IMG/VR virus record: IMGVR_UViG_3300029878_000286
Location: 1 to 8,831 of that record
DNA: 8,831 nt
From: a virus
Lineage: Duplodnaviria > Heunggongvirae > Uroviricota > Caudoviricetes
Direction: 5' to 3' (one strand)
This document shows, piece after piece, positions 1 through 8,831 of this stretch. Below the pieces are notes generated by a model. It was not told the origin of the DNA. It did not search any database and worked only from the letters and a program-made list of their open reading frames with translations. Both the position numbers and the translations under genes were made by a program. The number at the start of each line of letters is the position of its first letter. Position 1 is the first letter of the stretch.

Positions 1-333
1 CTAACGGATAGAACCATCAGGATATAAGTACACGCCACCCTCTAGATACATTGGCTCACCATCTTCAACTGCAATATCTTGATAAAGTTCAGCCAGTTCA
101 TTAGATTCATTTTTTACAAGATTATATGTATCAACATCATACCCAAGGATTTTTAACTCATCATCTGAGGTTGCTCCTTGTTTTTGCTTAAGCGCAACAA
201 TATCAAAAATCCACTTTTTGCCATCTTTAACGTAGTACGCCCCAGAATCATAACCACGATCGTCAAGTACTTTTTCAAATCCCATCGATAATGCTTTTTT
301 GACAGTATGTTTTTTTACGGTAATGATAGCCAT
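1..333 (-). CDS. Hypothetical acidic protein, 110 aa, no family recognised; possibly accessory cargo
   Basis: Complete minus-strand ORF: ATG at 333-331, stop TAG at 3-1 (reverse complement of cta at the window start). Weak AG-rich patch upstream (aagagat). The locus is visibly AT-rich compared with the core genes to the right. The translation is rich in D/E and has no hydrophobic segment. I do not recognise the family. Confidence 0.5.
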   Translation of the reverse strand: MAIITVKKHTVKKALSMGFEKVLDDRGYDSGAYYVKDGKKWIFDIVALKQKQGATSDDELKILGYDVDTYNLVKNESNELAELYQDIAVEDGEPMYLEGGVYLYPDGSIR

Positions 334-441
334 GTAATCTCTTAATATATTGAATAAAAGTGAACTTATATACTGATAAAAGTTTACTCTGACGCAATTA
401 ACTCAGCTAGTGGAGAATGATGTTATTTTTGCACCAGTAGA

Positions 442-1458
442 TCACACTTCTAGCGTTGCGAGGGGGTTGAATCTCAGAGCCGTCTCAAGATGATCGGGTG
501 CTAAATGGGCATAGCGCATAGTCATTTTTATATCGTGATGTCCGAGGATTTTTTGCAAAGCAAGGATATTTCCACCCGACATCATGAAGTGCGCCGCAAA
601 CGTATGGCGCAGAACGTGTGTCAGTTGACCGCGAGGGAGCACGATAGACGTTTTTTCCATCACGGATAAAAATTGAAAATAGCAGTCTGTAAAGAAATTG
701 AACCCATCAAGCGCCATGATCTCTTCGTAAAGCTCTTTACTGATAGGGATGCTTCTGTTTTTCTTCCCCTTCGTTCTTACAAAGGTAATTCGGTATTTGG
801 TCACTTGCGAGCGGGTAAGATTTATTGCTTCTCGCCAGCGTGCGCCTGTGCTTAGGCATATCTTGACTACCAGTGCCAGAATTGGGTCCTGACGTTTGCA
901 ATCAGCCAGCAGTTCAACAATCTGCTCATGGGTAAGCCATGCCATCTCTTTTTCTGCGATGGTGAATTTTCGCATGTTCTCCAGTGGGTTCGGATACGAC
1001 CATTCGCCCAGGCGGGATAGTTCGCTAAAAACACTACTTAGATAGCTTTGCTCCAGGTTAATGGTGACCGGGCTTGCTCCTTTCTTCCATTTCTCGCTGA
1101 AGTAGATCTCACCTGTCAGGCGTTTATCTCGATAGTGGGCAAACATTTTAGAGGTTAGATCAGTTGCAAGGGGATTGCCCAGAGCGTCAACCATCAACAG
1201 CAGTTTGTCATAGACATGCTGCCCAGCTGTCAGAGATTTACCATGTAGTTTGAACCATAGCTCAATCACGTCTTTCAATGTCCGACGATCCACTGATTCG
1301 CCCAGCCAGGGCTTTGCTTCGGTTTCTTCCATCGTGTGACGCTCAAAAGCCAGAGCTTCGCCTTTGGTGGCGAATTGTTTACGCACACGACGTCCACTAC
1401 GTCCGGCGGGGTAACATTCGCAAAGCCATTTTCCTGTGGTGAGTTTTCGTACTGCCAT
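442..1458 (-). CDS. int: Tyrosine recombinase / phage integrase of the P2-186 family (338 aa)
   Basis: In-frame ATG at 1458-1456 preceded by ggaggg (minus strand); stop TGA at 444-442. The ORF track starts 26 codons upstream at a non-ATG codon. The N-terminus (MAVRKLTTGKW...RKQFATKGEALAFERH) resembles the arm-binding domain of P2/186 Int as I recall it. The C-terminal part carries a tyrosine-recombinase catalytic signature (R...HxLRHT...Y, here ...LTHVLRHTFAAHF...MRYAHL). Confidence 0.9.
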   Translation of the reverse strand: MAVRKLTTGKWLCECYPAGRSGRRVRKQFATKGEALAFERHTMEETEAKPWLGESVDRRTLKDVIELWFKLHGKSLTAGQHVYDKLLLMVDALGNPLATDLTSKMFAHYRDKRLTGEIYFSEKWKKGASPVTINLEQSYLSSVFSELSRLGEWSYPNPLENMRKFTIAEKEMAWLTHEQIVELLADCKRQDPILALVVKICLSTGARWREAINLTRSQVTKYRITFVRTKGKKNRSIPISKELYEEIMALDGFNFFTDCYFQFLSVMEKTSIVLPRGQLTHVLRHTFAAHFMMSGGNILALQKILGHHDIKMTMRYAHLAPDHLETALRFNPLATLEV

Positions 1459-1644
1459 AAAAAATGCCCTCCAGTAGAGAGCATTTTTACTGTATGTATA
1501 ACCAGTGTCAATGTATGAAATCCTGCGACCATACATCTCACTGAAGCCATAATGAAGTTAGCTATTTTTTGCTATGTGAGTATGTGACTTTTGCGGTTAG
1601 CCTGCGGCTCATTGTTATATTAGGCGCAGATATAAAAGCAAAAT

Positions 1645-1836
1645 TTATCGCGAGTTTTTAGTACAGATTTTTTTTGATTTACTAATAGTTCCATCATTGC
1701 AAACGAACTTTCCATCGGAGGTACAGTGAGAGACACCTCCCTTTTTCCCAGAACAAGGATAATTTTTAGCATAGGTAGTTAGTGGGTTTAATAACAAAGA
1801 GCATGATAAAACCACAAAAAATACCTTACCAAGCAT
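1645..1836 (-). CDS. Small secreted cysteine-rich cationic protein (63-aa precursor, predicted Sec signal peptide, about 40-aa mature peptide); candidate moron / lysogenic-conversion gene
   Basis: ATG at 1836-1834 with a strong SD (gggagga) about 5 nt upstream on the minus strand, 15 nt downstream of the cI stop. The N-terminus [23 protein letters not shown] has a positive n-region, a hydrophobic core and a TYA cleavage-type motif. The predicted mature part [40 protein letters not shown] has 4 Cys and 8 Lys. The locus is AT-rich. Confidence 0.6.
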
Positions 1837-1851
1837 AGTTTCCTCCCGGTA

Positions 1852-2421
1852 TTACCTAACGTACTTAATTGTTAAACTTATAATTTTCCCAATTATTTCA
1901 ACATCTTCTATCTTGCACTCGAAGGCTCTGTTTCCACCCTCGACGAAGATTCTTCCACCGGGTAAACGAGTAATGTCACGGATCGTTATTTCGCCATCAA
2001 TACTTATTACCCATTTACCATCACGTATATCATCAAATTCCTTATCACAAATAAATTCAGAATTATTATCTGTGATTACAAAAAGATTCTTGAATGCCGA
2101 CGGTAGAAATTCTCTATCGAAAATATAAAAACCGTCTTCACACAAGGCCCCATCAGATAATACATATTTAGCAACTTCCATAGTATTTGTATTACCTGAA
2201 GTTTGCTTTGAACCATGCCCGGTTGTGAGCCAATTAAGCGAGGTGCCTGTTTCAAGGGCGCACTGGATTACCCATTCTGCTGGGAATGAGTCACGCATGT
2301 AGCGTGTGGCGAGTGTACTTTTAGAGATTCCTAAATGATCGCACAACGCCTGTCGAGTCTTGAATCCATAAGCTTCTACCATGCGCTCTATAGCGCCTCG
2401 TCCGCCTTTCTCCAAATTCAT
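1852..2421 (-). CDS. cI: Phage immunity repressor, 186 CI-like (N-terminal HTH, about 189 aa)
   Basis: The ORF track starts at GTG 2427-2425. The in-frame ATG at 2421-2419 has GGAG 5 nt upstream (minus strand) and is preferred. The length is close to coliphage 186 CI (about 192 aa, from memory). The N-terminal segment ...QALCDHLGISKSTLATRYMR... looks like an HTH. I see no LexA-type GDSM / Ser-Lys autocleavage motif. The gene is divergent from the apl/cII operon and co-directional with int, as in 186. Confidence 0.75.
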   Translation of the reverse strand: MNLEKGGRGAIERMVEAYGFKTRQALCDHLGISKSTLATRYMRDSFPAEWVIQCALETGTSLNWLTTGHGSKQTSGNTNTMEVAKYVLSDGALCEDGFYIFDREFLPSAFKNLFVITDNNSEFICDKEFDDIRDGKWVISIDGEITIRDITRLPGGRIFVEGGNRAFECKIEDVEIIGKIISLTIKYVR

Positions 2422-2445
2422 GGTCACTCCAAGTGAACTTTTATC

Positions 2446-2474
2446 TTGACGATTTCACTGTGCGATCGTATGTT
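2446..2474 (+). promoter_or_regulatory. Candidate rightward lytic promoter (pR-like): -35 TTGACG (2446-2451), 17-bp spacer, -10 TATGTT (2469-2474)
   Basis: Sigma70-like hexamers with canonical spacing, located 70-100 bp upstream of the apl-like start and close to the cI start. This matches the face-to-face pR/pL arrangement known for 186 and P2. GTGAAC / GTTCAC half-sites flank it at 2433-2438, 2453-2457 and 2482-2487. Confidence 0.35.
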
Positions 2475-2546
2475 TATGGTGTTCACAAAATACAAACGAT
2501 CCGTATTCGTCCTGATTAATCATCATTAAACGAGGAATGTTGCATC

Positions 2547-2768
2547 ATGAGACCTAACATTTCAATCACTCTTACCACCCCTCATGTGACTATTGAACGC
2601 TATAGCGAGCTGACAGGGCTATCCATCGATACCATCAATGACATGTTGGCTGATGGACGCCTTATCCGTCACCGTCTGCGCAAAGATAAAAAACGCGAAA
2701 AAGTGATGATCAACATAGCAGCAATGACCGTTGATGCGCTTTCAGAATGCAATCTAAACCTTAATTAG
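2547..2768 (+). CDS. apl: Apl/Cox-like excisionase-transcriptional regulator (73 aa, HTH)
   Basis: ATG at 2547 with gagga about 10 nt upstream; stop TAG at 2766-2768. It is the first gene of the rightward operon, directly opposite cI, which is the position of apl in 186 and cox in P2. The segment [25 protein letters not shown] is HTH-like. The assignment is by position and size. Confidence 0.6.
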
Positions 2769-2800
2769 TTCGATTCTGAAATACATCAGAGGCATTGACC

Positions 2801-3310
2801 ATGTTTGATTACCAAGTTTCCAAACATCCACATTTTGATGAAGCCTGTCGTGCATTCGCATTGCGCCACAACCTGGTGCAACTGGCAGAACGTGCTGGCA
2901 TGAATGTGCAGATTCTGCGGAACAAGTTGAACCCAGCGCAACCTCATTTATTAACCGCACCAGAAATCTGGCTGCTTACCGATCTGACTGAAGATTCAAC
3001 GCTGGTAGATGGTTTTCTGGCTCAGATTCACTGCCTGCCATGCGTACCGATTAATGAGGTGGCAAAAGAGAAACTGCCACATTACGTCATGAGTGCAACC
3101 GCAGAGATCGGGCGTGTTGCTGCAGGTGCGGTATCTGGCGATGTAAAAACCAGTGCAGGTCGTCGTGATGCTATCAGCAGCATTAACTCTGTAACACGAC
3201 TGATGGCGTTGGCTGCTGTTTCATTGCAGGCCCGTTTACAGGCTAACCCTGCGATGGCGAGTGCAGTTGATACCGTGACTGGCCTCGGTGCTTCATTCGG
3301 TTTGCTGTGA
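2801..3310 (+). CDS. cII: CII-like lysogeny-establishment activator (169 aa), 186 CII family
   Basis: In-frame ATG at 2801 (the ORF track starts at TTG 2795) with agagg upstream. The translation [24 protein letters not shown]...[15 protein letters not shown]...[21 protein letters not shown] matches my recollection of coliphage 186 CII almost along its whole length, and the length is the same (169 aa). Confidence 0.8.
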
Positions 3311-3317
3311 GGTGCTT

Positions 3318-3518
3318 ATGCTGACGAAAGAACCATCATTTGCATCGCTGCTGGTAAAGCAAAGCCCGGCGATGCACTACGGTCACGGCTGGATCATGGG
3401 TGAGGATGGAAAACGCTGGCATCCGTGCCGTTCACAAGATGAATTGCTGGCAGAACTATCTACGAAAAAACGGGGGAACAAATGGCTATTGAAGGCGCTG
3501 CGGCGACTGTTCCATTAA
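3318..3518 (+). CDS. fil: Fil-like small early protein (66 aa); 186 Fil is a cell-division inhibitor
   Basis: ATG at 3318 preceded by gaggtg, 7 nt after the cII stop. The ORF track extends upstream to a GTG inside cII. Position after cII and the MLTKEPSFASLLVKQSP...HPCRSQ sequence fit 186 fil as I recall it. Confidence 0.55.
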   Translation: MLTKEPSFASLLVKQSPAMHYGHGWIMGEDGKRWHPCRSQDELLAELSTKKRGNKWLLKALRRLFH

Positions 3519-3823
3519 GACCCGGTGAACGCCTGAATGGACTTAATCATATTGCGGAGTTAAGGGCGAAAGTTTTTGGTTTGAATATTGAGTCAGAGCT
3601 TGAGCGGTTTATTAAAGATATGCGTGATCCACGGGATATCAATAATGAACAAAATAAACGGGCACTGGCTGCCATATTCTTTATGGCAAAAATTCCAGCT
3701 GAACGTCATAGCATCAGCATTAATGAGCTGACCACTGACGAAAAGCGGGAGTTGATTAAAGCAATGAATCATTTTCGTGCAGTGGTGAGCTTATTTCCCA
3801 GACGGCTAACCATGCCGAATTAA
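3482..3823 (+). CDS. Hypothetical phage early protein (113 aa)
   Basis: ATG at 3482 with ggggga 4 nt upstream; stop TAA at 3821-3823. It overlaps the end of the fil-like ORF by 37 nt in another frame and is co-directional within the early operon. No family recognised. Confidence 0.5.
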   Translation: MAIEGAAATVPLRPGERLNGLNHIAELRAKVFGLNIESELERFIKDMRDPRDINNEQNKRALAAIFFMAKIPAERHSISINELTTDEKRELIKAMNHFRAVVSLFPRRLTMPN

Positions 3824-3890
3824 CCAACTAATGAAATTAATGGCGTAAACCCGCCGGGCATCCCTTTATCTAAATTCAGGAGAATTGCTT

Positions 3891-4124
3891 ATGCGTAATA
3901 TTGAAACCCTCACGACCAAAACCGGACCGGATGATGCAGGTCTTAATCTTTTACTGACAGAGGCTCGTCTGGAAGAACGCCGGGCAAGGGCTGAAGCAAT
4001 GGCTGCTCGCCTCGATAGCCTGGCGTGTCATATCACCTCCCGCCAGCTAAACCACGTCGAAGCGGCAGAACTGCTGCGTGTGACTGCTGAAGCAATCCAG
4101 AACGAAGCGCAGGAGATCCACTGA
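3891..4124 (+). CDS. Hypothetical phage early protein (77 aa), predicted helical
   Basis: ATG at 3891 preceded by aggaga (the ORF track starts at TTG 3885). Its stop TGA (4122-4124) overlaps the ATG of the next gene (TGATG), suggesting translational coupling. Confidence 0.55.
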   Translation: MRNIETLTTKTGPDDAGLNLLLTEARLEERRARAEAMAARLDSLACHITSRQLNHVEAAELLRVTAEAIQNEAQEIH

Positions 4125-4351
4125 TGGCTGATGCAATGGATCTCGTACAGCAGCGCGTTGAAGAAGAACGCCAACGCCATATCCGTGCTGCCCGTGCCAA
4201 AACGCCGGGCGTGTCCCGCGTGCTTTGCGTTGAGTGTGAAGCGCCAATTCCGCCAGCACGCCGCCGTGCCATTCCTGGAGTGCAGCTTTGCATTACCTGC
4301 CAGGAAATCGCAGAGCTGAAAGGCAAACATTACAACGGAGGTGCTGTATGA
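4124..4351 (+). CDS. TraR/DksA-family C4 zinc-finger protein (75 aa)
   Basis: ATG at 4124 with aggaga 7 nt upstream. The translation has CxxC-(17)-CxxC (CVEC...CITC), the spacing typical of the DksA/TraR zinc finger. Small TraR-like ORFs occur in the early regions of P2-like and lambdoid phages. Confidence 0.7.
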   Translation: MADAMDLVQQRVEEERQRHIRAARAKTPGVSRVLCVECEAPIPPARRRAIPGVQLCITCQEIAELKGKHYNGGAV

Positions 4352-5220
4352 GCACCATCCTGAAATGGGCGGGTAATAAAACCGCCATTATGTCCGAACT
4401 GAAAAAATACCTTCCTGCTGGCCCGCGACTGGTTGAACCTTTCGCGGGTTCTTGTGCTGTGATGATGGCGACGGATTACCCCAGCTATCTGGTTGCGGAT
4501 ATTAATCCTGATTTAATCAACCTCTATAAAAAGATTGCCGCTGATTGCGAAGCGTTTATATCTCGTGCCAAAGTTTTATTTGAGGAAGCAAACAGTGAGC
4601 TGGCTTATTACAACATAAGACAGGAGTTTAATTACTCAACTGAAATTACTGATTTCATGAAGGCGATATATTTCCTGTATCTCAATCGTCACGGTTACCG
4701 TGGTTTATGTCGCTATAACAAGAGCGGGTATTTCAACATTCCCTACGGTAATTATAAAAATCCGTATTTCCCTGAAAAAGAAATTCGCGCATTTGCAGAG
4801 AAAGCCCAGCGGGCAACGTTTATCTGCGCGAGCTTTGATGAAACGCTGGCGATGCTGCAGGTGGGGGATGTGGTGTATTGCGATCCGCCGTATGACGGTA
4901 CGTTTTCCGGCTACCTGGTGGGTACGGATGAAAACGTGCTGGTACTTAATCGCACTTATGCCAACCGGAGCAACGCCGAACGAGCGGCGAAAATGCAGTG
5001 GGAACGCCTGCAACGCGGCGTTGCGTCATTCTCGCTACAACTGGCAGAAGGGCGGGCAGATCTCTACACGGAAATGCCAGTGAAAGTCAGTGGCTTTAAA
5101 CAGCCGATAGATGATGCGGAATGGACCATTACGACTCTGACGCATACCGTCAGCCCGGATAACGGTTTTACGACCAGTCTGGAGCTTGAAGTGAGGATTG
5201 ATGATTTCGAAATGGAATGA
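4348..5220 (+). pseudogene. Chimeric in-frame ORF (290 aa): N-terminal about 182 aa of a Dam-family N6-adenine DNA methyltransferase fused to the C-terminal about 100 aa of P2-type tail protein D; likely a deletion scar rather than a functional gene
   Basis: ATG at 4348 overlaps the upstream stop (ATGA), with ggagg 6 nt upstream. Residues 1-182 carry Dam-like motifs: ILKWAGNK at the N-terminus, PFAGSCAV (motif I-like) and DPPY at 179-182 (nt 4882-4893). The roughly 95 residues that follow DPPY in Dam enzymes are missing. From about residue 186 (nt about 4903) the sequence ([19 protein letters not shown]...[53 protein letters not shown]...GFTTSLELEVRIDD) matches my recollection of the C-terminus of P2 gpD. 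The next gene is ogr, as it is after D in P2. Confidence 0.65.
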
Positions 5221-5310
5221 TTCTTCGCAATGGAGAACTTTTAAGTTTGCAAAATGGAATAATGCGGTATCATTATTGTGAATTTAGCAAAAATGGGGAG
5301 AACTCGAAAA

Positions 5311-5529
5311 ATGATGATTTGCCCACTGTGTGGAAGTGCCGCCCATACTCGCAGCAGTTTTCAGGTATCTTCATTGACCAAAGAGCGTTACAACCAGTGC
5401 CAGAACATTAACTGCAGCCATACTTTTGTTACCCATGAAACTTTTGTTCGTTCGATTGCAACGCCAAAAGAGTCAAATCCGGTTCAGCCGCATCCAATTA
5501 AATCAGGACAGGTGGCGCTCTCTCTTTGA
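5311..5529 (+). CDS. ogr: Ogr/B-family late-gene transcriptional activator (72 aa, zinc finger)
   Basis: ATG at 5311 with gggaga about 9 nt upstream (the ORF track starts at GTG 5278). The translation MMICPLCGSAAHTRSS...KERYNQCQNINCSHTF...PHP..SGQ has the CxxC-(22)-CxxxxC finger and a KERY.QCQN.NC core as I recall for P2 Ogr; the length is identical (72 aa). It sits after the D fragment as in P2. Confidence 0.85.
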   Translation: MMICPLCGSAAHTRSSFQVSSLTKERYNQCQNINCSHTFVTHETFVRSIATPKESNPVQPHPIKSGQVALSL

Positions 5530-5609
5530 CGCCGCCGCCATTTTGTCGCCATCGTTAAAAAACAGTTTTTCTAACATCATGATTTTAAACAGCTTAAATT
5601 TCAGGCAAC

Positions 5610-5652
5610 AAAAAACCCATCAACCTTGAACCGAAATGGCGGGGTTGATGGG
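5610..5652 (-). terminator. Rho-independent terminator-like hairpin downstream of ybjL
   Basis: A 10-bp perfect inverted repeat, cccatcaacc (5616-5625) and ggttgatggg (5643-5652), with a 17-nt loop. On the minus strand it is followed by a 6-nt T run (plus-strand A run 5610-5615). It lies about 110 bp past the ybjL stop. Confidence 0.5.
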
Positions 5653-5764
5653 CTCCACAAAATGGGGACATCAAAGAAAAGCAGTGGCACTAATTAAGAC
5701 TGATGCCCTGCGGAAAAGTTCTGCGGTTGTGCAAAAAAATTTCATTTTCAGGGCAACTTCAGTT

Positions 5765-7450
5765 TTATCCTAATCCTGGCCATACCATGACGATGATTGT
5801 CCCTGCCAGCGTCAGCAGGACGTTGGCGATTGCGTAGGTGCCCGCATAGCCCAGCGCAGGGATGTTACTGCGAGCTGTATCACTGATGATCTCCATTGCC
5901 GGCGCGCAGGTGCGTGCGCCCATCATTGCGCCGAACAACAGTGCGCGGTTCATTCGCAATACATAAGCACCGAACAAGAAACAGATAACCACGGGCACAA
6001 GACTGACAATTAATCCGGCAATCAACATCTGACCGCCAATCGCGCCCAGGCCGTTATTAATACCGCTACCGGCGCTCAGACCAACGCCTGCCATAAACAC
6101 CATCAAGCCGAACTCTTTCACCATGCTTAATGCACCTTGCGGAATGTAACCGAAGGTCGGGTGGTTAGCACGCATAAAGCCCAGCATAATTCCGGCGAAT
6201 AACAACCCGGCAGCGTTCCCCATGCCGAAACTGAATGTGCTGAACTGGAAGGTGATCATCCCGATCATCAGCCCAATAACAAAGAAGGCGCAAAATGCCA
6301 GCAGGTCAGTGACCTGGCTGTGAATCGAGATAAAGCCGATGCGATCGGCGATGGTTTTTACGCGACGGGCATCACCGCTGACTTGTAAAACGTCACCTTT
6401 GTTAAGCACGACGTTGTCATCTATCGGCATCTCAATCTGGCTACGAATGACGCGGTTAAGGAAGCAACCGTGATCGGTCAACTTCAGTTGTGCGAGACGT
6501 TTACCTACAGCGTTATGGTTTTTAACGACCACTTCTTCAGTGACGATACGCATGTCGAGAAGGTCACGATCGAAAACTTCTTTACCGTTACGGAAGCTGG
6601 GATCGAGTCGGGCATGGGCGTCGGGATAGCCTACCAACGCTATTTCATCGCCCATTTGTAGCACGGCATCACCGTCTGGATTTGCCAGAATCCCGTTACG
6701 TCGAATACGTTCAATGTAGCAGCCGGTTTGTCGATAAATACCCAGTTCACGCAGATTTTTGCCGTCGGTCCAGGCCACCAGCTCCGGGCCGACGCGATAG
6801 GCGCGGATCACCGGTAAATAAACCTTACGGTTGGCATCAGTGTCCAGGCCACGTTCGCGGGCGATTTGCTGGGCGCTGGTCTGTAAGTCCTGATGCTGCA
6901 ATTTCGGCAAGTAACGCGCACCAACAATCAAACTCACCAGACCGATTAAATAGGTTAAGGCATACCCGAGGCTCAGATTATCCAGTGCCAGTGAGAGCTG
7001 CCTGCTTTCCATGCCGGAATGACGCAGTGTATCGCCAGCACCGACCAGAACCGGTGTCGACGTCATAGAGCCTGCTAACATACCGGCCGTCAGGCCAATA
7101 TCCCAGCCAAACAGCTTACCTAACCCTAAGGCGATCACCAGCGCACTGCCAACCATCACCAGTGCTAACATTAGGTAATTTTTCCCATCGCGAAAAAAAA
7201 TGGAAAAAAAGTTCGGTCCGGCTTCAACCCCAACACAGAAAATAAACAGCATAAAGCCAAGATTAAGCGCATCGGTGTTAATGCTGAAATGATGTTGGCC
7301 TAATAACAGCGATACGACTAAAACGCCAATGGAATTACCCAGTTGGATCGAACCAAGTCGTAACTTTCCGAGACATAGCCCAAGCGCGAGGACCACAAAT
7401 AATAACAGAATGTAATTCCCATTTAACAATTCGGCGACGTTTATATTCAC
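5765..7450 (-). CDS. ybjL: Putative transport protein YbjL (561 aa; AAE-family transporter with two TrkA-C-like domains)
   Basis: The translation [33 protein letters not shown]... matches E. coli YbjL as I recall it, with multiple hydrophobic segments and a central soluble region. The start is GTG at 7450-7448. Confidence 0.93.
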
Positions 7451-7719
7451 GGAGGCTAACTTCTTGTTTACTAGTAAGCTGTTGAAAGAAATGGTAATTT
7501 ACGATAATGTTTTTTACCAGAATTCAGGGCGCAGATTCATTCAGCGCACCTAAACGATAGTAAAGTAACAATATATTTTACTAGTGTAATCACATTAGGT
7601 ATCAACGGCTATATGAATTGCGTTGGCCTATATTAGCATGGAATGCGAAGCGGCTTTATCTTACTGAACGCCACACTGGCGAAAAATGTGTTCGATAGAC
7701 GCAGTGTCAGGAGGAACGA

Positions 7720-8097
7720 GTGAAACATAAACAACGTTGGGCGGGGGCAATCTGCTGTTTTGTCCTCTTCATTGTGGTGTGCCTTTTTCTGGCGACGCAC
7801 ATGAAAGGCGCTTTTCGGGCTGCCGGGCATCCTGAAATCGGCTTGCTGTTTTTCATTCTTCCTGGAGCAGTTGCCAGTTTCTTTTCACAGCGTAGAGAAG
7901 TCCTGAAACCTCTGTTTGGCGCAATGCTGGCGGCACCCTGTTCAATGCTTATTATGCGGCTGTTTTTTTCACCGACCCGCTCATTCTGGCAAGAGCTGGC
8001 ATGGTTACTAAGCGCGGTGTTCTGGTGTGCGCTGGGGGCACTGTGTTTCTTATTTATCAGTAGTTTGTTTAAACCACAGCACAGAAAAAATCAGTAA
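7720..8097 (+). CDS. ybjM: Inner-membrane protein YbjM (125 aa)
   Basis: GTG start at 7720 with aggagga 5 nt upstream; stop TAA at 8095-8097. The hydrophobic translation MKHKQRWAGAICCFVLFIVVCLFLATH... matches E. coli YbjM as I recall it. Confidence 0.88.
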   Translation: MKHKQRWAGAICCFVLFIVVCLFLATHMKGAFRAAGHPEIGLLFFILPGAVASFFSQRREVLKPLFGAMLAAPCSMLIMRLFFSPTRSFWQELAWLLSAVFWCALGALCFLFISSLFKPQHRKNQ

Positions 8098-8117
8098 AGC
8101 CCTCAACGTGAGGGCTT
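8097..8117. terminator. Hairpin between convergent ybjM and grxA, possible bidirectional terminator
   Basis: aagccctca / tgagggctt form a 9-bp stem with a 3-nt loop (acg) immediately after the ybjM stop and 10 nt before the grxA stop. The flanking U-runs are weak on both strands. Confidence 0.4.
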
Positions 8118-8126
8118 GTCAGACGA

Positions 8127-8384
8127 TCAGGCGTCCAGATTTTCTTTCACCCATGCAGCAAAATCGGTATAGCCGCCGATATGTTGCTGATCGACAAAAA
8201 TCTGCGGCACGGTTTCTACGGGTTTACCTGCCTTTTGTTGTAGATCTTCTTTAGTGATCCCTTCCGCACGAATATCAACATACTGATACTGAAAATCATC
8301 GCGTTCATTGCTCAATTTCTCAGCCAGATCTTTTGCACGCACACAGTAAGGGCAACCCGGACGACCAAAAATAACGGTTTGCAT
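8127..8384 (-). CDS. grxA: Glutaredoxin 1 (85 aa)
   Basis: ATG at 8384-8382 with gaggag 7 nt upstream on the minus strand (the ORF track starts 5 codons further upstream, inside that SD). The translation MQTVIFGRPGCPYCVRAKDLAEKL... has the CPYC glutaredoxin active site and matches E. coli GrxA. Confidence 0.95.
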   Translation of the reverse strand: MQTVIFGRPGCPYCVRAKDLAEKLSNERDDFQYQYVDIRAEGITKEDLQQKAGKPVETVPQIFVDQQHIGGYTDFAAWVKENLDA

Positions 8385-8543
8385 TATTTCTCTCCTCATA
8401 GATTTATGCCTGTAATGATCACGCTAAAATGTATTCGCTGAAAGTAGGTTTAACCTGTTGCATTAATTGCTAAAAGCTATAACTGTTAAACACAATACAG
8501 TGAAAAGTTTTAGACTGAAGGCTCACTTTGCAGAGGGAAGCGT
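8385..8543. promoter_or_regulatory. Divergent promoter region for grxA (leftward) and ybjC-nfsA (rightward); individual sites not mapped
   Basis: A 159-bp AT-rich intergenic region between divergent start codons. In E. coli grxA belongs to the OxyR regulon and nfsA (co-transcribed with ybjC) to the SoxS/MarA/Rob regulon. I could not place the hexamers or activator boxes confidently by eye. Confidence 0.4.
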
Positions 8544-8831
8544 ATGCGCGCGATCGGTAAATTGCCTAAAGGCGTGTTGATACTGGAATTTATCGGAATG
8601 ATGCTACTGGCGGTGGCGCTGCTGTCGGTAAGCGACTCCCTGTCGCTGCCTGAGCCATTTTCTCGGCCAGAAGTGCAGATTCTGATGATTTTTCTCGGTG
8701 TTTTGCTCATGCTTCCCGCTGCGGTGGTGGTTATTCTTCAGGTGGCAAAACGTCTTGCCCCACAGCTGATGAACCGTCCACCGCAATATTCACGTTCAGA
8801 AAGAGAAAAAGATAATGACGCCAACCATTGA
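8544..8831 (+). CDS. ybjC: Inner-membrane protein YbjC (95 aa)
   Basis: ATG at 8544 with gaggga upstream; stop TGA at 8829-8831. The translation MRAIGKLPKGVLILEFIGMMLLAVALL... matches E. coli YbjC. Its last 17 nt overlap the nfsA start. Confidence 0.9.
   Translation: MRAIGKLPKGVLILEFIGMMLLAVALLSVSDSLSLPEPFSRPEVQILMIFLGVLLMLPAAVVVILQVAKRLAPQLMNRPPQYSRSEREKDNDANH
8815..8831 (+). CDS. nfsA: 5' end (first 5 codons) of oxygen-insensitive NADPH nitroreductase NfsA; truncated by the window edge
   Basis: ATG at 8815 followed by acg cca acc att ga, giving MTPTI(E), the N-terminus of E. coli NfsA as I recall it. It overlaps the ybjC 3' end out of frame, consistent with the ybjC-nfsA operon. Confidence 0.6.

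Follow-up and report, generated by a model that had tools for sequence, protein, structure and literature searches.

A remnant of a 186-like, P2-family prophage in the rybB terminator of Escherichia coli, probably grounded by a single internal deletion

The window analyzed here, a stretch of 8,831 nucleotides (positions 1 to 8,831 of the IMG/VR virus record IMGVR_UViG_3300029878_000286), carries a small prophage element together with the adjoining chromosome of E. coli. The element is very probably a grounded, decaying deletion derivative of a 186-like prophage of the P2 family (Peduoviridae), lodged in the 3' terminator end of rybB between rcdA and ybjL. An initial annotation, made from the letters alone, had described positions 334-5609 as a minimal P2-family remnant. 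The assignment to a P2-family, 186-like remnant is borne out by the gene content and synteny.

The origin of the element was traced by comparison with the corresponding prophage of E. coli B. Rybb*W, Rybb*B and Rybb*Cr are P2-type prophages located at the rybB non-coding RNA in E. coli W, B and Crooks, respectively, with retron Ec86 present in Rybb*B (Archer et al. 2011, PMC3032704). Positions 1-4913 of the window correspond to positions 20001-24913 of the locus in E. coli B strain REL606 (L001) at 99.9% identity, and positions 4912-6527 correspond to 43298-44913 of the same locus at 98.4%. In total, 18,384 bp are absent relative to Rybb*B. In REL606 this gap contains the 3' part of dam, the gene of replication endonuclease A with its origin of replication (ori), a DinI-like gene, retron St85/Ec86, and portal, terminase, scaffold, lysis and tail genes. 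The two elements thus share the rybB site, the nearly identical left 4.9 kb and the same order of int, cI, apl, cII, fil, early genes and ogr; they differ in that the window's element lacks the 18.4 kb (the 3' part of dam, A, retron Ec86, portal, terminase, and the remaining head, lysis and tail genes) and in that its D'-ogr end has diverged by 2.2%.

At the junction, with a slash marking the breakpoint, the parental sequences read ...TTCCGGCTA/TCACAC in dam and ...GGGCGATTA/CCTGGTGG in D, while the product reads ...GGCTACCTGG, with an overlap of TA and with the reading frame maintained. The resulting in-frame fusion (Dam'::D') forms one open reading frame (ORF) at 4348-5220, which comprises residues 1-189 of Dam and the final 102 residues of D.

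The host context and the boundaries of the element were examined next. In K-12 the rybB small RNA (sRNA) gene lies between rcdA and ybjL at the matching empty site, and rybB occupies the same conserved position in the window. All of the window DNA to the left of rybB is phage DNA, and the right third is E. coli core DNA (ybjL, ybjM, grxA and the start of ybjC). The attachment (att) sites were defined by alignment of attB of K-12, attL and attR of REL606, the window, attP of KP12, and attL of the same locus from assembly GCA_040163885.1 (L004), which differs from the window by 1 nt. The attachment core, 14 nt in length (AACAAAAAACCCAT), is the 3' end of the rybB terminator, and the P and P' arm sequences of KP12 attP are present in both att sites of the element. 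The left site, attL, lies outside the window, 150-163 nt to the left of its position 1 (as seen in L004). The element therefore starts about 150 nt left of the window, ends in the rybB terminator and is about 5.78 kb long in total. Of the boundaries initially proposed, the right one was confirmed, in that the attR core is situated in rybB, while the left one was set too far to the right: attL lies beyond the window, and orf110 is consequently inside the element.

The ORFs were identified using Pfam, PHROGs, NCBIfam, PADLOC-DB v2, PDB sequences and BLASTP against KP12 and 186 proteins (Table 1). The genes int, cI, apl/cox-like, cII and ogr are present, open and full length where the initial annotation had placed them, as judged by the ORF list, Pfam, PHROGs and BLASTP. 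Its statement that nothing else had been kept was mistaken, since orf63, fil, the DUF5347 and DUF2732 genes, a TraR/DksA zinc-finger gene and the Dam'::D' fusion are also retained. Several traits of the Peduoviridae are evident: a P2-type tyrosine integrase located by the att site together with a Cox/Apl-type excisionase, an Ogr/Delta activator downstream of D and adjoining att, and a syntenic 186-type CI/CII module. The order D'-ogr-attR is that of 186, P2 and KP12. In contrast, the traits of a complete prophage, i.e., the rolling-circle initiator A with its internal ori, cos, and the head, tail and lysis operons, are absent, and all of them fall within the 18.4-kb gap. No cos-like sequence (the 186 19-mer and the cos-flanking region) or ori-like sequence occurs in the window, and both were found in the deleted part in REL606/KP12. 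The element is thus a remnant of a member of the P2/186-like family and not a functional member.

Among the individual products, the integrase is 99.4% identical to KP12 Int and 55.7% identical to 186 Int over its full length. The identity of CII is 95% to its KP12 counterpart and 69% to that of 186 (full length), and that of Ogr is 98.6% to KP12 Ogr and 54% to 186 B. The product of dam' is 93% identical to residues 1-189 of KP12 Dam. The CI repressor is more distant, with 54% identity to KP12 CI, which is of another immunity type, and 32% to 186 CI; the exact CI protein was found on at least 1000 contigs.

Table 1. Features of the rybB element and its surroundings (positions in the window)
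Feature	Position	Strand	Evidence and remarks
orf110, 110-residue cargo ORF between attL and int	1-333	-	34% G+C; hypothetical protein WP_000974872.1 in REL606 and ZYB62
int, P2/186-type tyrosine integrase, 338 residues, full length	442-1458	-	Pfam Int_N 2.6e-32, Phage_integrase 8e-22
orf63, small YdcA-family protein, 63 residues, int-cI slot	1645-1836	-	phrog_6000; NF007463, 116 bits; PF27300 YdcA
cI, 186-type immunity repressor, 189 residues	1852-2421	-	Pfam Phage_CI_repr 2.8e-33, Phage_CI_C 8.7e-27
Lysis-lysogeny switch region	2422-2546		Putative pR (-35 TTGACG at 2446, -10 TATGTT at 2469); operator-like GTGAAC repeats 2432-2459, 2478-2485
apl/cox-like excisionase and transcriptional switch protein, 73 residues	2547-2768	+	phrog_575 'Cox-like excisionase and repressor', E=6.1e-31; syntenic with 186 apl
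cII, establishment activator, 169 residues	2801-3310	+	Pfam Phage_CP76 3.4e-42
fil, 186 Fil-family cell-division inhibitor, 66 residues	3318-3518	+	Pfam Phage_186_Fil 2.5e-24; 82% identical to 186 Fil
DUF5347 early gene	3482-3823	+	Pfam 8.7e-33; phrog_602
DUF2732 early gene	3891-4124	+	Pfam 4.1e-29; homologue of 186 and P2 orf80
TraR/DksA-type C4 zinc-finger early gene	4124-4351	+	Pfam zf-dskA_traR 4.4e-11; 68% identical to 186 homologue
dam', codons 1-189 of 285 of phage orphan Dam methylase	4348-4913	+	Ends just past DPPY motif; Pfam MethyltransfD12, profile positions 1-190 of 253
Deletion junction, dam joined to D	4912-4913		2-nt TA microhomology; dam codon 189 to D codon 265
D', last 102 codons of tail gene D, in frame with dam'	4914-5220	+	Pfam Phage_GPD, weak; 96% identical to KP12 D residues 265-366
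D-ogr spacer with putative sigma70-like ogr promoter	5221-5310	+	-35 TTTGCA at 5246, -10 TATCAT at 5268; dyad 5258-5277
ogr, Ogr/Delta zinc-finger late-gene activator, 72 residues	5311-5529	+	PF04606 (Ogr_Delta); NF007241; C-X2-C-X22-C-X4-C intact
attR	5530-5620		Phage P arm with GCCGCCATTTTGTCGCCAT (Int arm-type-like repeat) and 14-nt core at 5607-5620
rybB sRNA gene (host)	5607-5685	-	Rfam RF00110, 105.3 bits (threshold 40), full length, model positions 1-79
ybjL (host)	5765-7450	-	
ybjM (host)	7720-8097	+	
grxA (host)	8127-8384	-	

According to the proposed course of events, one illegitimate deletion of about 18.4 kb would have removed gene A with ori, cos, the cargo and all of the head, lysis and tail genes. 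The left side would have been left with attL, orf110, int, orf63, cI, the switch, apl, cII, fil, three small early genes and dam', and the right side with D', ogr and attR/rybB. CI would then keep pR shut, with apl, cII, fil and the other early genes silent, and would confer superinfection immunity to phages of the same immunity type; a residual CI immunity of this kind is probable. The module that the initial annotation had called a complete immunity and establishment switch does look complete (cI, switch, cII and the CII site), and the element appears excisable in principle, as had also been proposed: int, apl and both att sites are intact, which makes excision by Int and Apl plausible. The excised circle would nevertheless be a dead end, because the element can neither replicate nor be packaged. 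Any Ogr that is expressed could act in trans on late promoters of P2-like phages or P4-like satellites entering the cell. Reportedly, the cryptic ogr genes of K-12 and B complement P2 ogr mutants (a 1992 report).

The initial annotation held that what survives in the element is not random. A single internal deletion, however, always keeps both att-proximal ends, and the retained gene set therefore needs no special selection. By a simple estimate, with endpoints falling evenly over a prophage of 33 kb, about (29/33)^2 = 78% of such deletions would leave int-cII and ogr untouched. Deletions extending beyond attR, in turn, would damage rybB. A further constraint may act on the repressor, since cI is probably held in place for as long as a pR-driven fil remains; the 186 record (NC_001317) carries the annotation 'overexpression blocks cell division' for Fil. 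Transposon-directed insertion-site sequencing (TraDIS) found that the repressors of P2-like prophages, including that of one degenerate prophage, are required for growth (PMC3632133). The only remnant in our survey without cI, that of strain AH21, also lacks pR, apl, cII and fil. We read the pattern of retention as the result of geometry and constraint, and not of domestication.

The distribution of such elements was surveyed in 5,426 complete E. coli genomes (RefSeq). An int gene (at 80% coverage or more) is present in 1,118 of them and the ogr-rybB junction in 1,105; a rybB element thus occurs in about 20%, or one in five, of the complete genomes. Retention of the ogr end does not exceed that of the int end, contrary to the earlier suggestion that this end of P2-like prophages is preferentially retained. 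In a contiguity test with a 24-kb empty-site query from K-12, in which an insertion of up to 12.5 kb still counts as contiguous, the rcdA-ybjL locus was contiguous in 4,325 of the genomes. This leaves about 1,101 insertions larger than 12.5 kb (roughly 98% of the rybB elements) and roughly 20 short remnants (about 2%). The junctions at the 18 short-remnant loci inspected are many and different, often with several deletions in each. Further decay is evident among them: strain E3 has an internal stop in int, the loss in AH21 of cI, apl, cII and fil is accompanied by an IS5-family element at that site, and cII is truncated in many. The dam::D junction of the window was found in none of the 5,426 complete genomes. 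The exact Dam'::D' fusion protein was nonetheless recovered from 52 contigs (98 index blocks), on which its surroundings are the same throughout, and this remnant is lineage-restricted, not unique.

These data bear directly on an alternative in which the module is a domesticated immunity island, kept by the host under selection from 186-like and P2-like phages on account of CI immunity and perhaps the mistiming of incoming P2-like phages by Ogr. Such an explanation would account for the intact ORFs, the occurrence of the remnant in more than one isolate, the very common cI allele and the synonymous nature of the three coding differences from REL606; moreover, cI is kept in 19 of the approximately 20 short remnants inspected, and the Ogr protein is identical in all of them. 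Yet the same Ogr and CI proteins, without any change, are found in large prophages that are presumably active, and their conservation is therefore older than the remnant state. The related-genome survey did not reveal a conserved remnant: the short forms are rare, their junctions differ in each lineage, the window's own junction is missing from the complete genomes, and parts of the module are lost or disrupted in AH21, E3 and the remnants with a truncated cII. The int and ogr ends, moreover, are retained equally often. As for a defence function, the PADLOC-DB v2 scan of 10 proteins revealed no known defence proteins; only the truncated Dam was matched, by orphan and type II methyltransferase models. 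Taken together, we consider domestication improbable.

Several observations nevertheless weigh against a decaying derivative of a Rybb*B-like prophage. All 12 ORFs are intact, and each of the three coding differences that separate cI, apl and fil from their REL606 counterparts is synonymous. Both findings would fit purifying selection, but n=3 confers no statistical power, and the deletion might just be a recent one. Divergence from REL606 also steps up at the deletion junction. The left host flank and the left part of the prophage are 99.8-99.9% identical to REL606 (0.1-0.2% divergence), while on the right D'-ogr is 97.8% and ybjL 98.9% identical (2.2% and 1.1%); D' differs from REL606 by 6 nt and 1 amino acid, and ogr by 2 nt and 1 amino acid. 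Such a step points to a breakpoint of recombination at the junction or close by. The right-hand part is thus 1-2% diverged, compared with about 0.15% on the left, which means that the element did not descend immediately from the REL606 prophage itself. The differences between elements that are more distant arose before the remnant state. In addition, the breakpoint in D is a recurrent hot spot, and the deletion was accordingly not a uniformly random event. Finally, the expression and activity of cI, int and ogr are putative.

A second alternative is a satellite-like mobile element, in which Ogr, as a homologue of Delta, would switch on the late genes of a P2-like helper, such that the element is excised and mobilised at the helper's expense in the manner of P4. 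The core set of P4-like satellites comprises int, psu, delta, sid and alpA as well as epsilon and alpha, along with a cos site (Moura de Sousa & Rocha 2021, PMC8628076). The element resembles these satellites in its integrase and Ogr/Delta-family late activator (P4 Delta is an Ogr homologue; PMC8628076), in its small size and in its dependence on P2-like phage biology, and it possesses an excisionase and both att sites as well. In contrast, Pfam and PHROGs scans of all ORFs recovered only two of the seven P4 core components, int and the Ogr/Delta homologue. Absent are sid, psu, epsilon, alpA and the primase/helicase (alpha), as are a cos-like site and an ori. Moreover, the element is colinear with the prophage apart from one deletion and not with P4, rather than being an independently organised genome. 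The anatomy has thus largely refuted the satellite-like reading entertained initially, and we regard it as most improbable.

The decaying prophage derivative remains the preferred explanation, and the recurrence of its breakpoint raises the question of how the deletion arose. Junctions were mapped against common references (loci L011, L013, L014, L017-L019, L021, L026, L027 and L030; in REL606 L001, about position 23133 for cII and about 26507 for A). In independent rybB prophage remnants the endpoints recur to the nucleotide, at TA. The D breakpoint, /TACCTGGTGG, is common to the window, AH21 (where it is joined to gene A, ...GTGCGGGTA/) and PSJ-16 (where it is joined to gene O, ...GGCGGTA/). 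With 12-20 differences in 693 nt, the right ends of the three are as far apart as those of random pairs, which marks the events as independent. The cII breakpoint, ...GCAGGTGCGGTA/ (GCGGTA/), was joined to no fewer than six partners. Three of these are D833, U185 and D~1479; another three, from an independent metagenome scan, are the A-gene site ...GTGCGGGTA/, the portal/terminase region and D nt ~125. Seven of the 10 loci from that scan were discarded as chance 20-mer matches in unrelated DNA. An endpoint in D at TA/GATGATG is common to E3 and ZYB62, and the A-gene site (GCGGGTA/) forms the left end in AH21 but the right end in L026.

One account of these endpoints, which concerns only the origin of the deletion and is compatible with the prophage derivative, is that breakage and joining are directed by sequence to TA positions via 2-4 nt of homology, as opposed to random illegitimate recombination. 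The breakpoints shared to the nucleotide, the numerous partners of the cII site, the use of the A-gene site in both directions, and the presence of TA directly before the retained part in all of the right-hand parents point towards it. On the other hand, TA is missing at the A::D junction of TUM12357, the O::K junction of REL606 and the second deletion of ET896, the sampling of short remnants enriches for endpoints near the prophage ends, none of the sites compared fits, and the comparison identified no enzyme. Directed breakage is thus a serious possibility, which we place somewhat short of an even chance.

Candidate explanations for the hot spots were compared and rejected. Their sequences are dissimilar to the att core, to the ori nick site of the P2/186 A protein and to the crossover site of Cin/Gin-type invertases. 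By inspection, Chi is in the wrong orientation, and no consistent hairpin context in single-stranded DNA was observed. That TA sites are cut and joined by a specific activity, of host or phage origin, which would make the grounding of P2-like prophages a directed process and not random decay, is a tentative and rather doubtful proposal. If true, directed cutting at TA would also explain the recurring D'-ogr stubs. The use of identical endpoints by independent lineages, which could prove more important than the element itself, would make prophage inactivation partly deterministic and experimentally tractable.

The regulatory regions of the element were analyzed within the context of its relatives. 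In elements with another cI allele, the GTGAAC repeats of the switch region are exchanged for GGGTAC-type repeats; the former thus behave as expected of immunity-specific operators, a putative role derived from sequence comparison. The start of cII holds a region matching the CII-binding site/pE of 186, and the 186 CII site is conserved in the alignment. In 186, according to the annotation of its record, CI represses the promoter of the late activator (B) directly, at two operators. Upstream of the -35 of the ogr promoter, a motif (GAGAACTTTTA) resembles a motif of the switch (GTGAACTTTTA), but in 11 elements that differ in immunity type the D-ogr spacer hardly varies, and it does not covary where the switch operators are GGGTAC-type. 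The ogr promoter region thus does not follow the immunity type, and control by CI is only putative. A dyad, AATAATGC-GGTA-TCATTATT, overlaps the -10 of the putative ogr promoter and is the same in all 11 elements compared; it could be the site for a conserved regulator. Another motif, AAGTGAACTT(A/T)TAT..., occurs at 358-376 and 2431-2449, just upstream of orf110 and cI (both on the minus strand), and includes the putative operator half-site GTGAAC. This may be due to chance, or CI may act at the orf110 promoter too.

Two positions in the element appear to accommodate cargo. The slot between attL and int, occupied here by orf110, seems variable, with different genes in other strains, e.g., a Panacea-domain protein in BE2-5 (L015). 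The orf110 product itself had no match in Pfam, PHROGs, PADLOC, NCBIfam or PDB sequences. The int-cI slot, occupied by orf63, is a second hot spot, in which relatives hold a KAP P-loop NTPase together with a second CI-like gene, a DUF4041 protein, an AAA ATPase or an SMC-like ATPase (L006 5774-7450; L009 1094-3560; L016 1505-3238; L021/L022 for DUF4041). These cargo genes of the relatives are candidate defence genes.

In its overall organization the element is similar to coliphage 186 (Eganvirus; NC_001317), with which it shares the order D - B/ogr - att - int - cI - (pL/pR) - apl - cII - fil - ... - DUF2732 - DksA-like zinc finger. The two differ in their operators and in the low identity of their CI proteins; moreover, the apl/cox-like protein had no Pfam match, and BLASTP detected no similarity to 186 Apl. 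186 integrates in tRNA-Ile (ileY) and the element in rybB; 186 has dhr where the element has the DUF5347 gene, and it lacks dam.

A second D'-ogr remnant at another locus in K-12, mentioned in the initial annotation, is indeed present as the cryptic prophage PR-X at cyaR (PMC3032704). It consists of yegZ (D', 219 nt) and an intact ogrK that abuts the 3' end of cyaR (L023 1615-2321), and its right-end architecture is the same as that of the element. PR-X belongs to P2 proper (97% identical to P2) and has lost the int/immunity side entirely, whereas the element keeps both ends. At the left edge of PR-X (L023 ~2312-2330), D is fused to an incomplete P2 att core with the sequence ...AAAAAATAAGCCCGTGTA, in place of the ...GGGGCGTTGCGGAG of P2; an integrase-mediated deletion from attL to a secondary site within D is the suggested cause. 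In both of the P2-family stubs examined, the 3' terminator end of an sRNA gene (rybB or cyaR) serves as the att site, in the manner of tRNA genes, and the phage supplies an identical 3' end that leaves the sRNA unaltered.

In itself the element is of little importance, being one more cryptic P2/186-like stub at the known hot spot rybB. Such stubs, however, probably still provide CI immunity, and a potentially active ogr could complement P2-like phages and P4-like satellites that enter the cell, or perturb them, which makes such stubs relevant to phage-host range work in E. coli.

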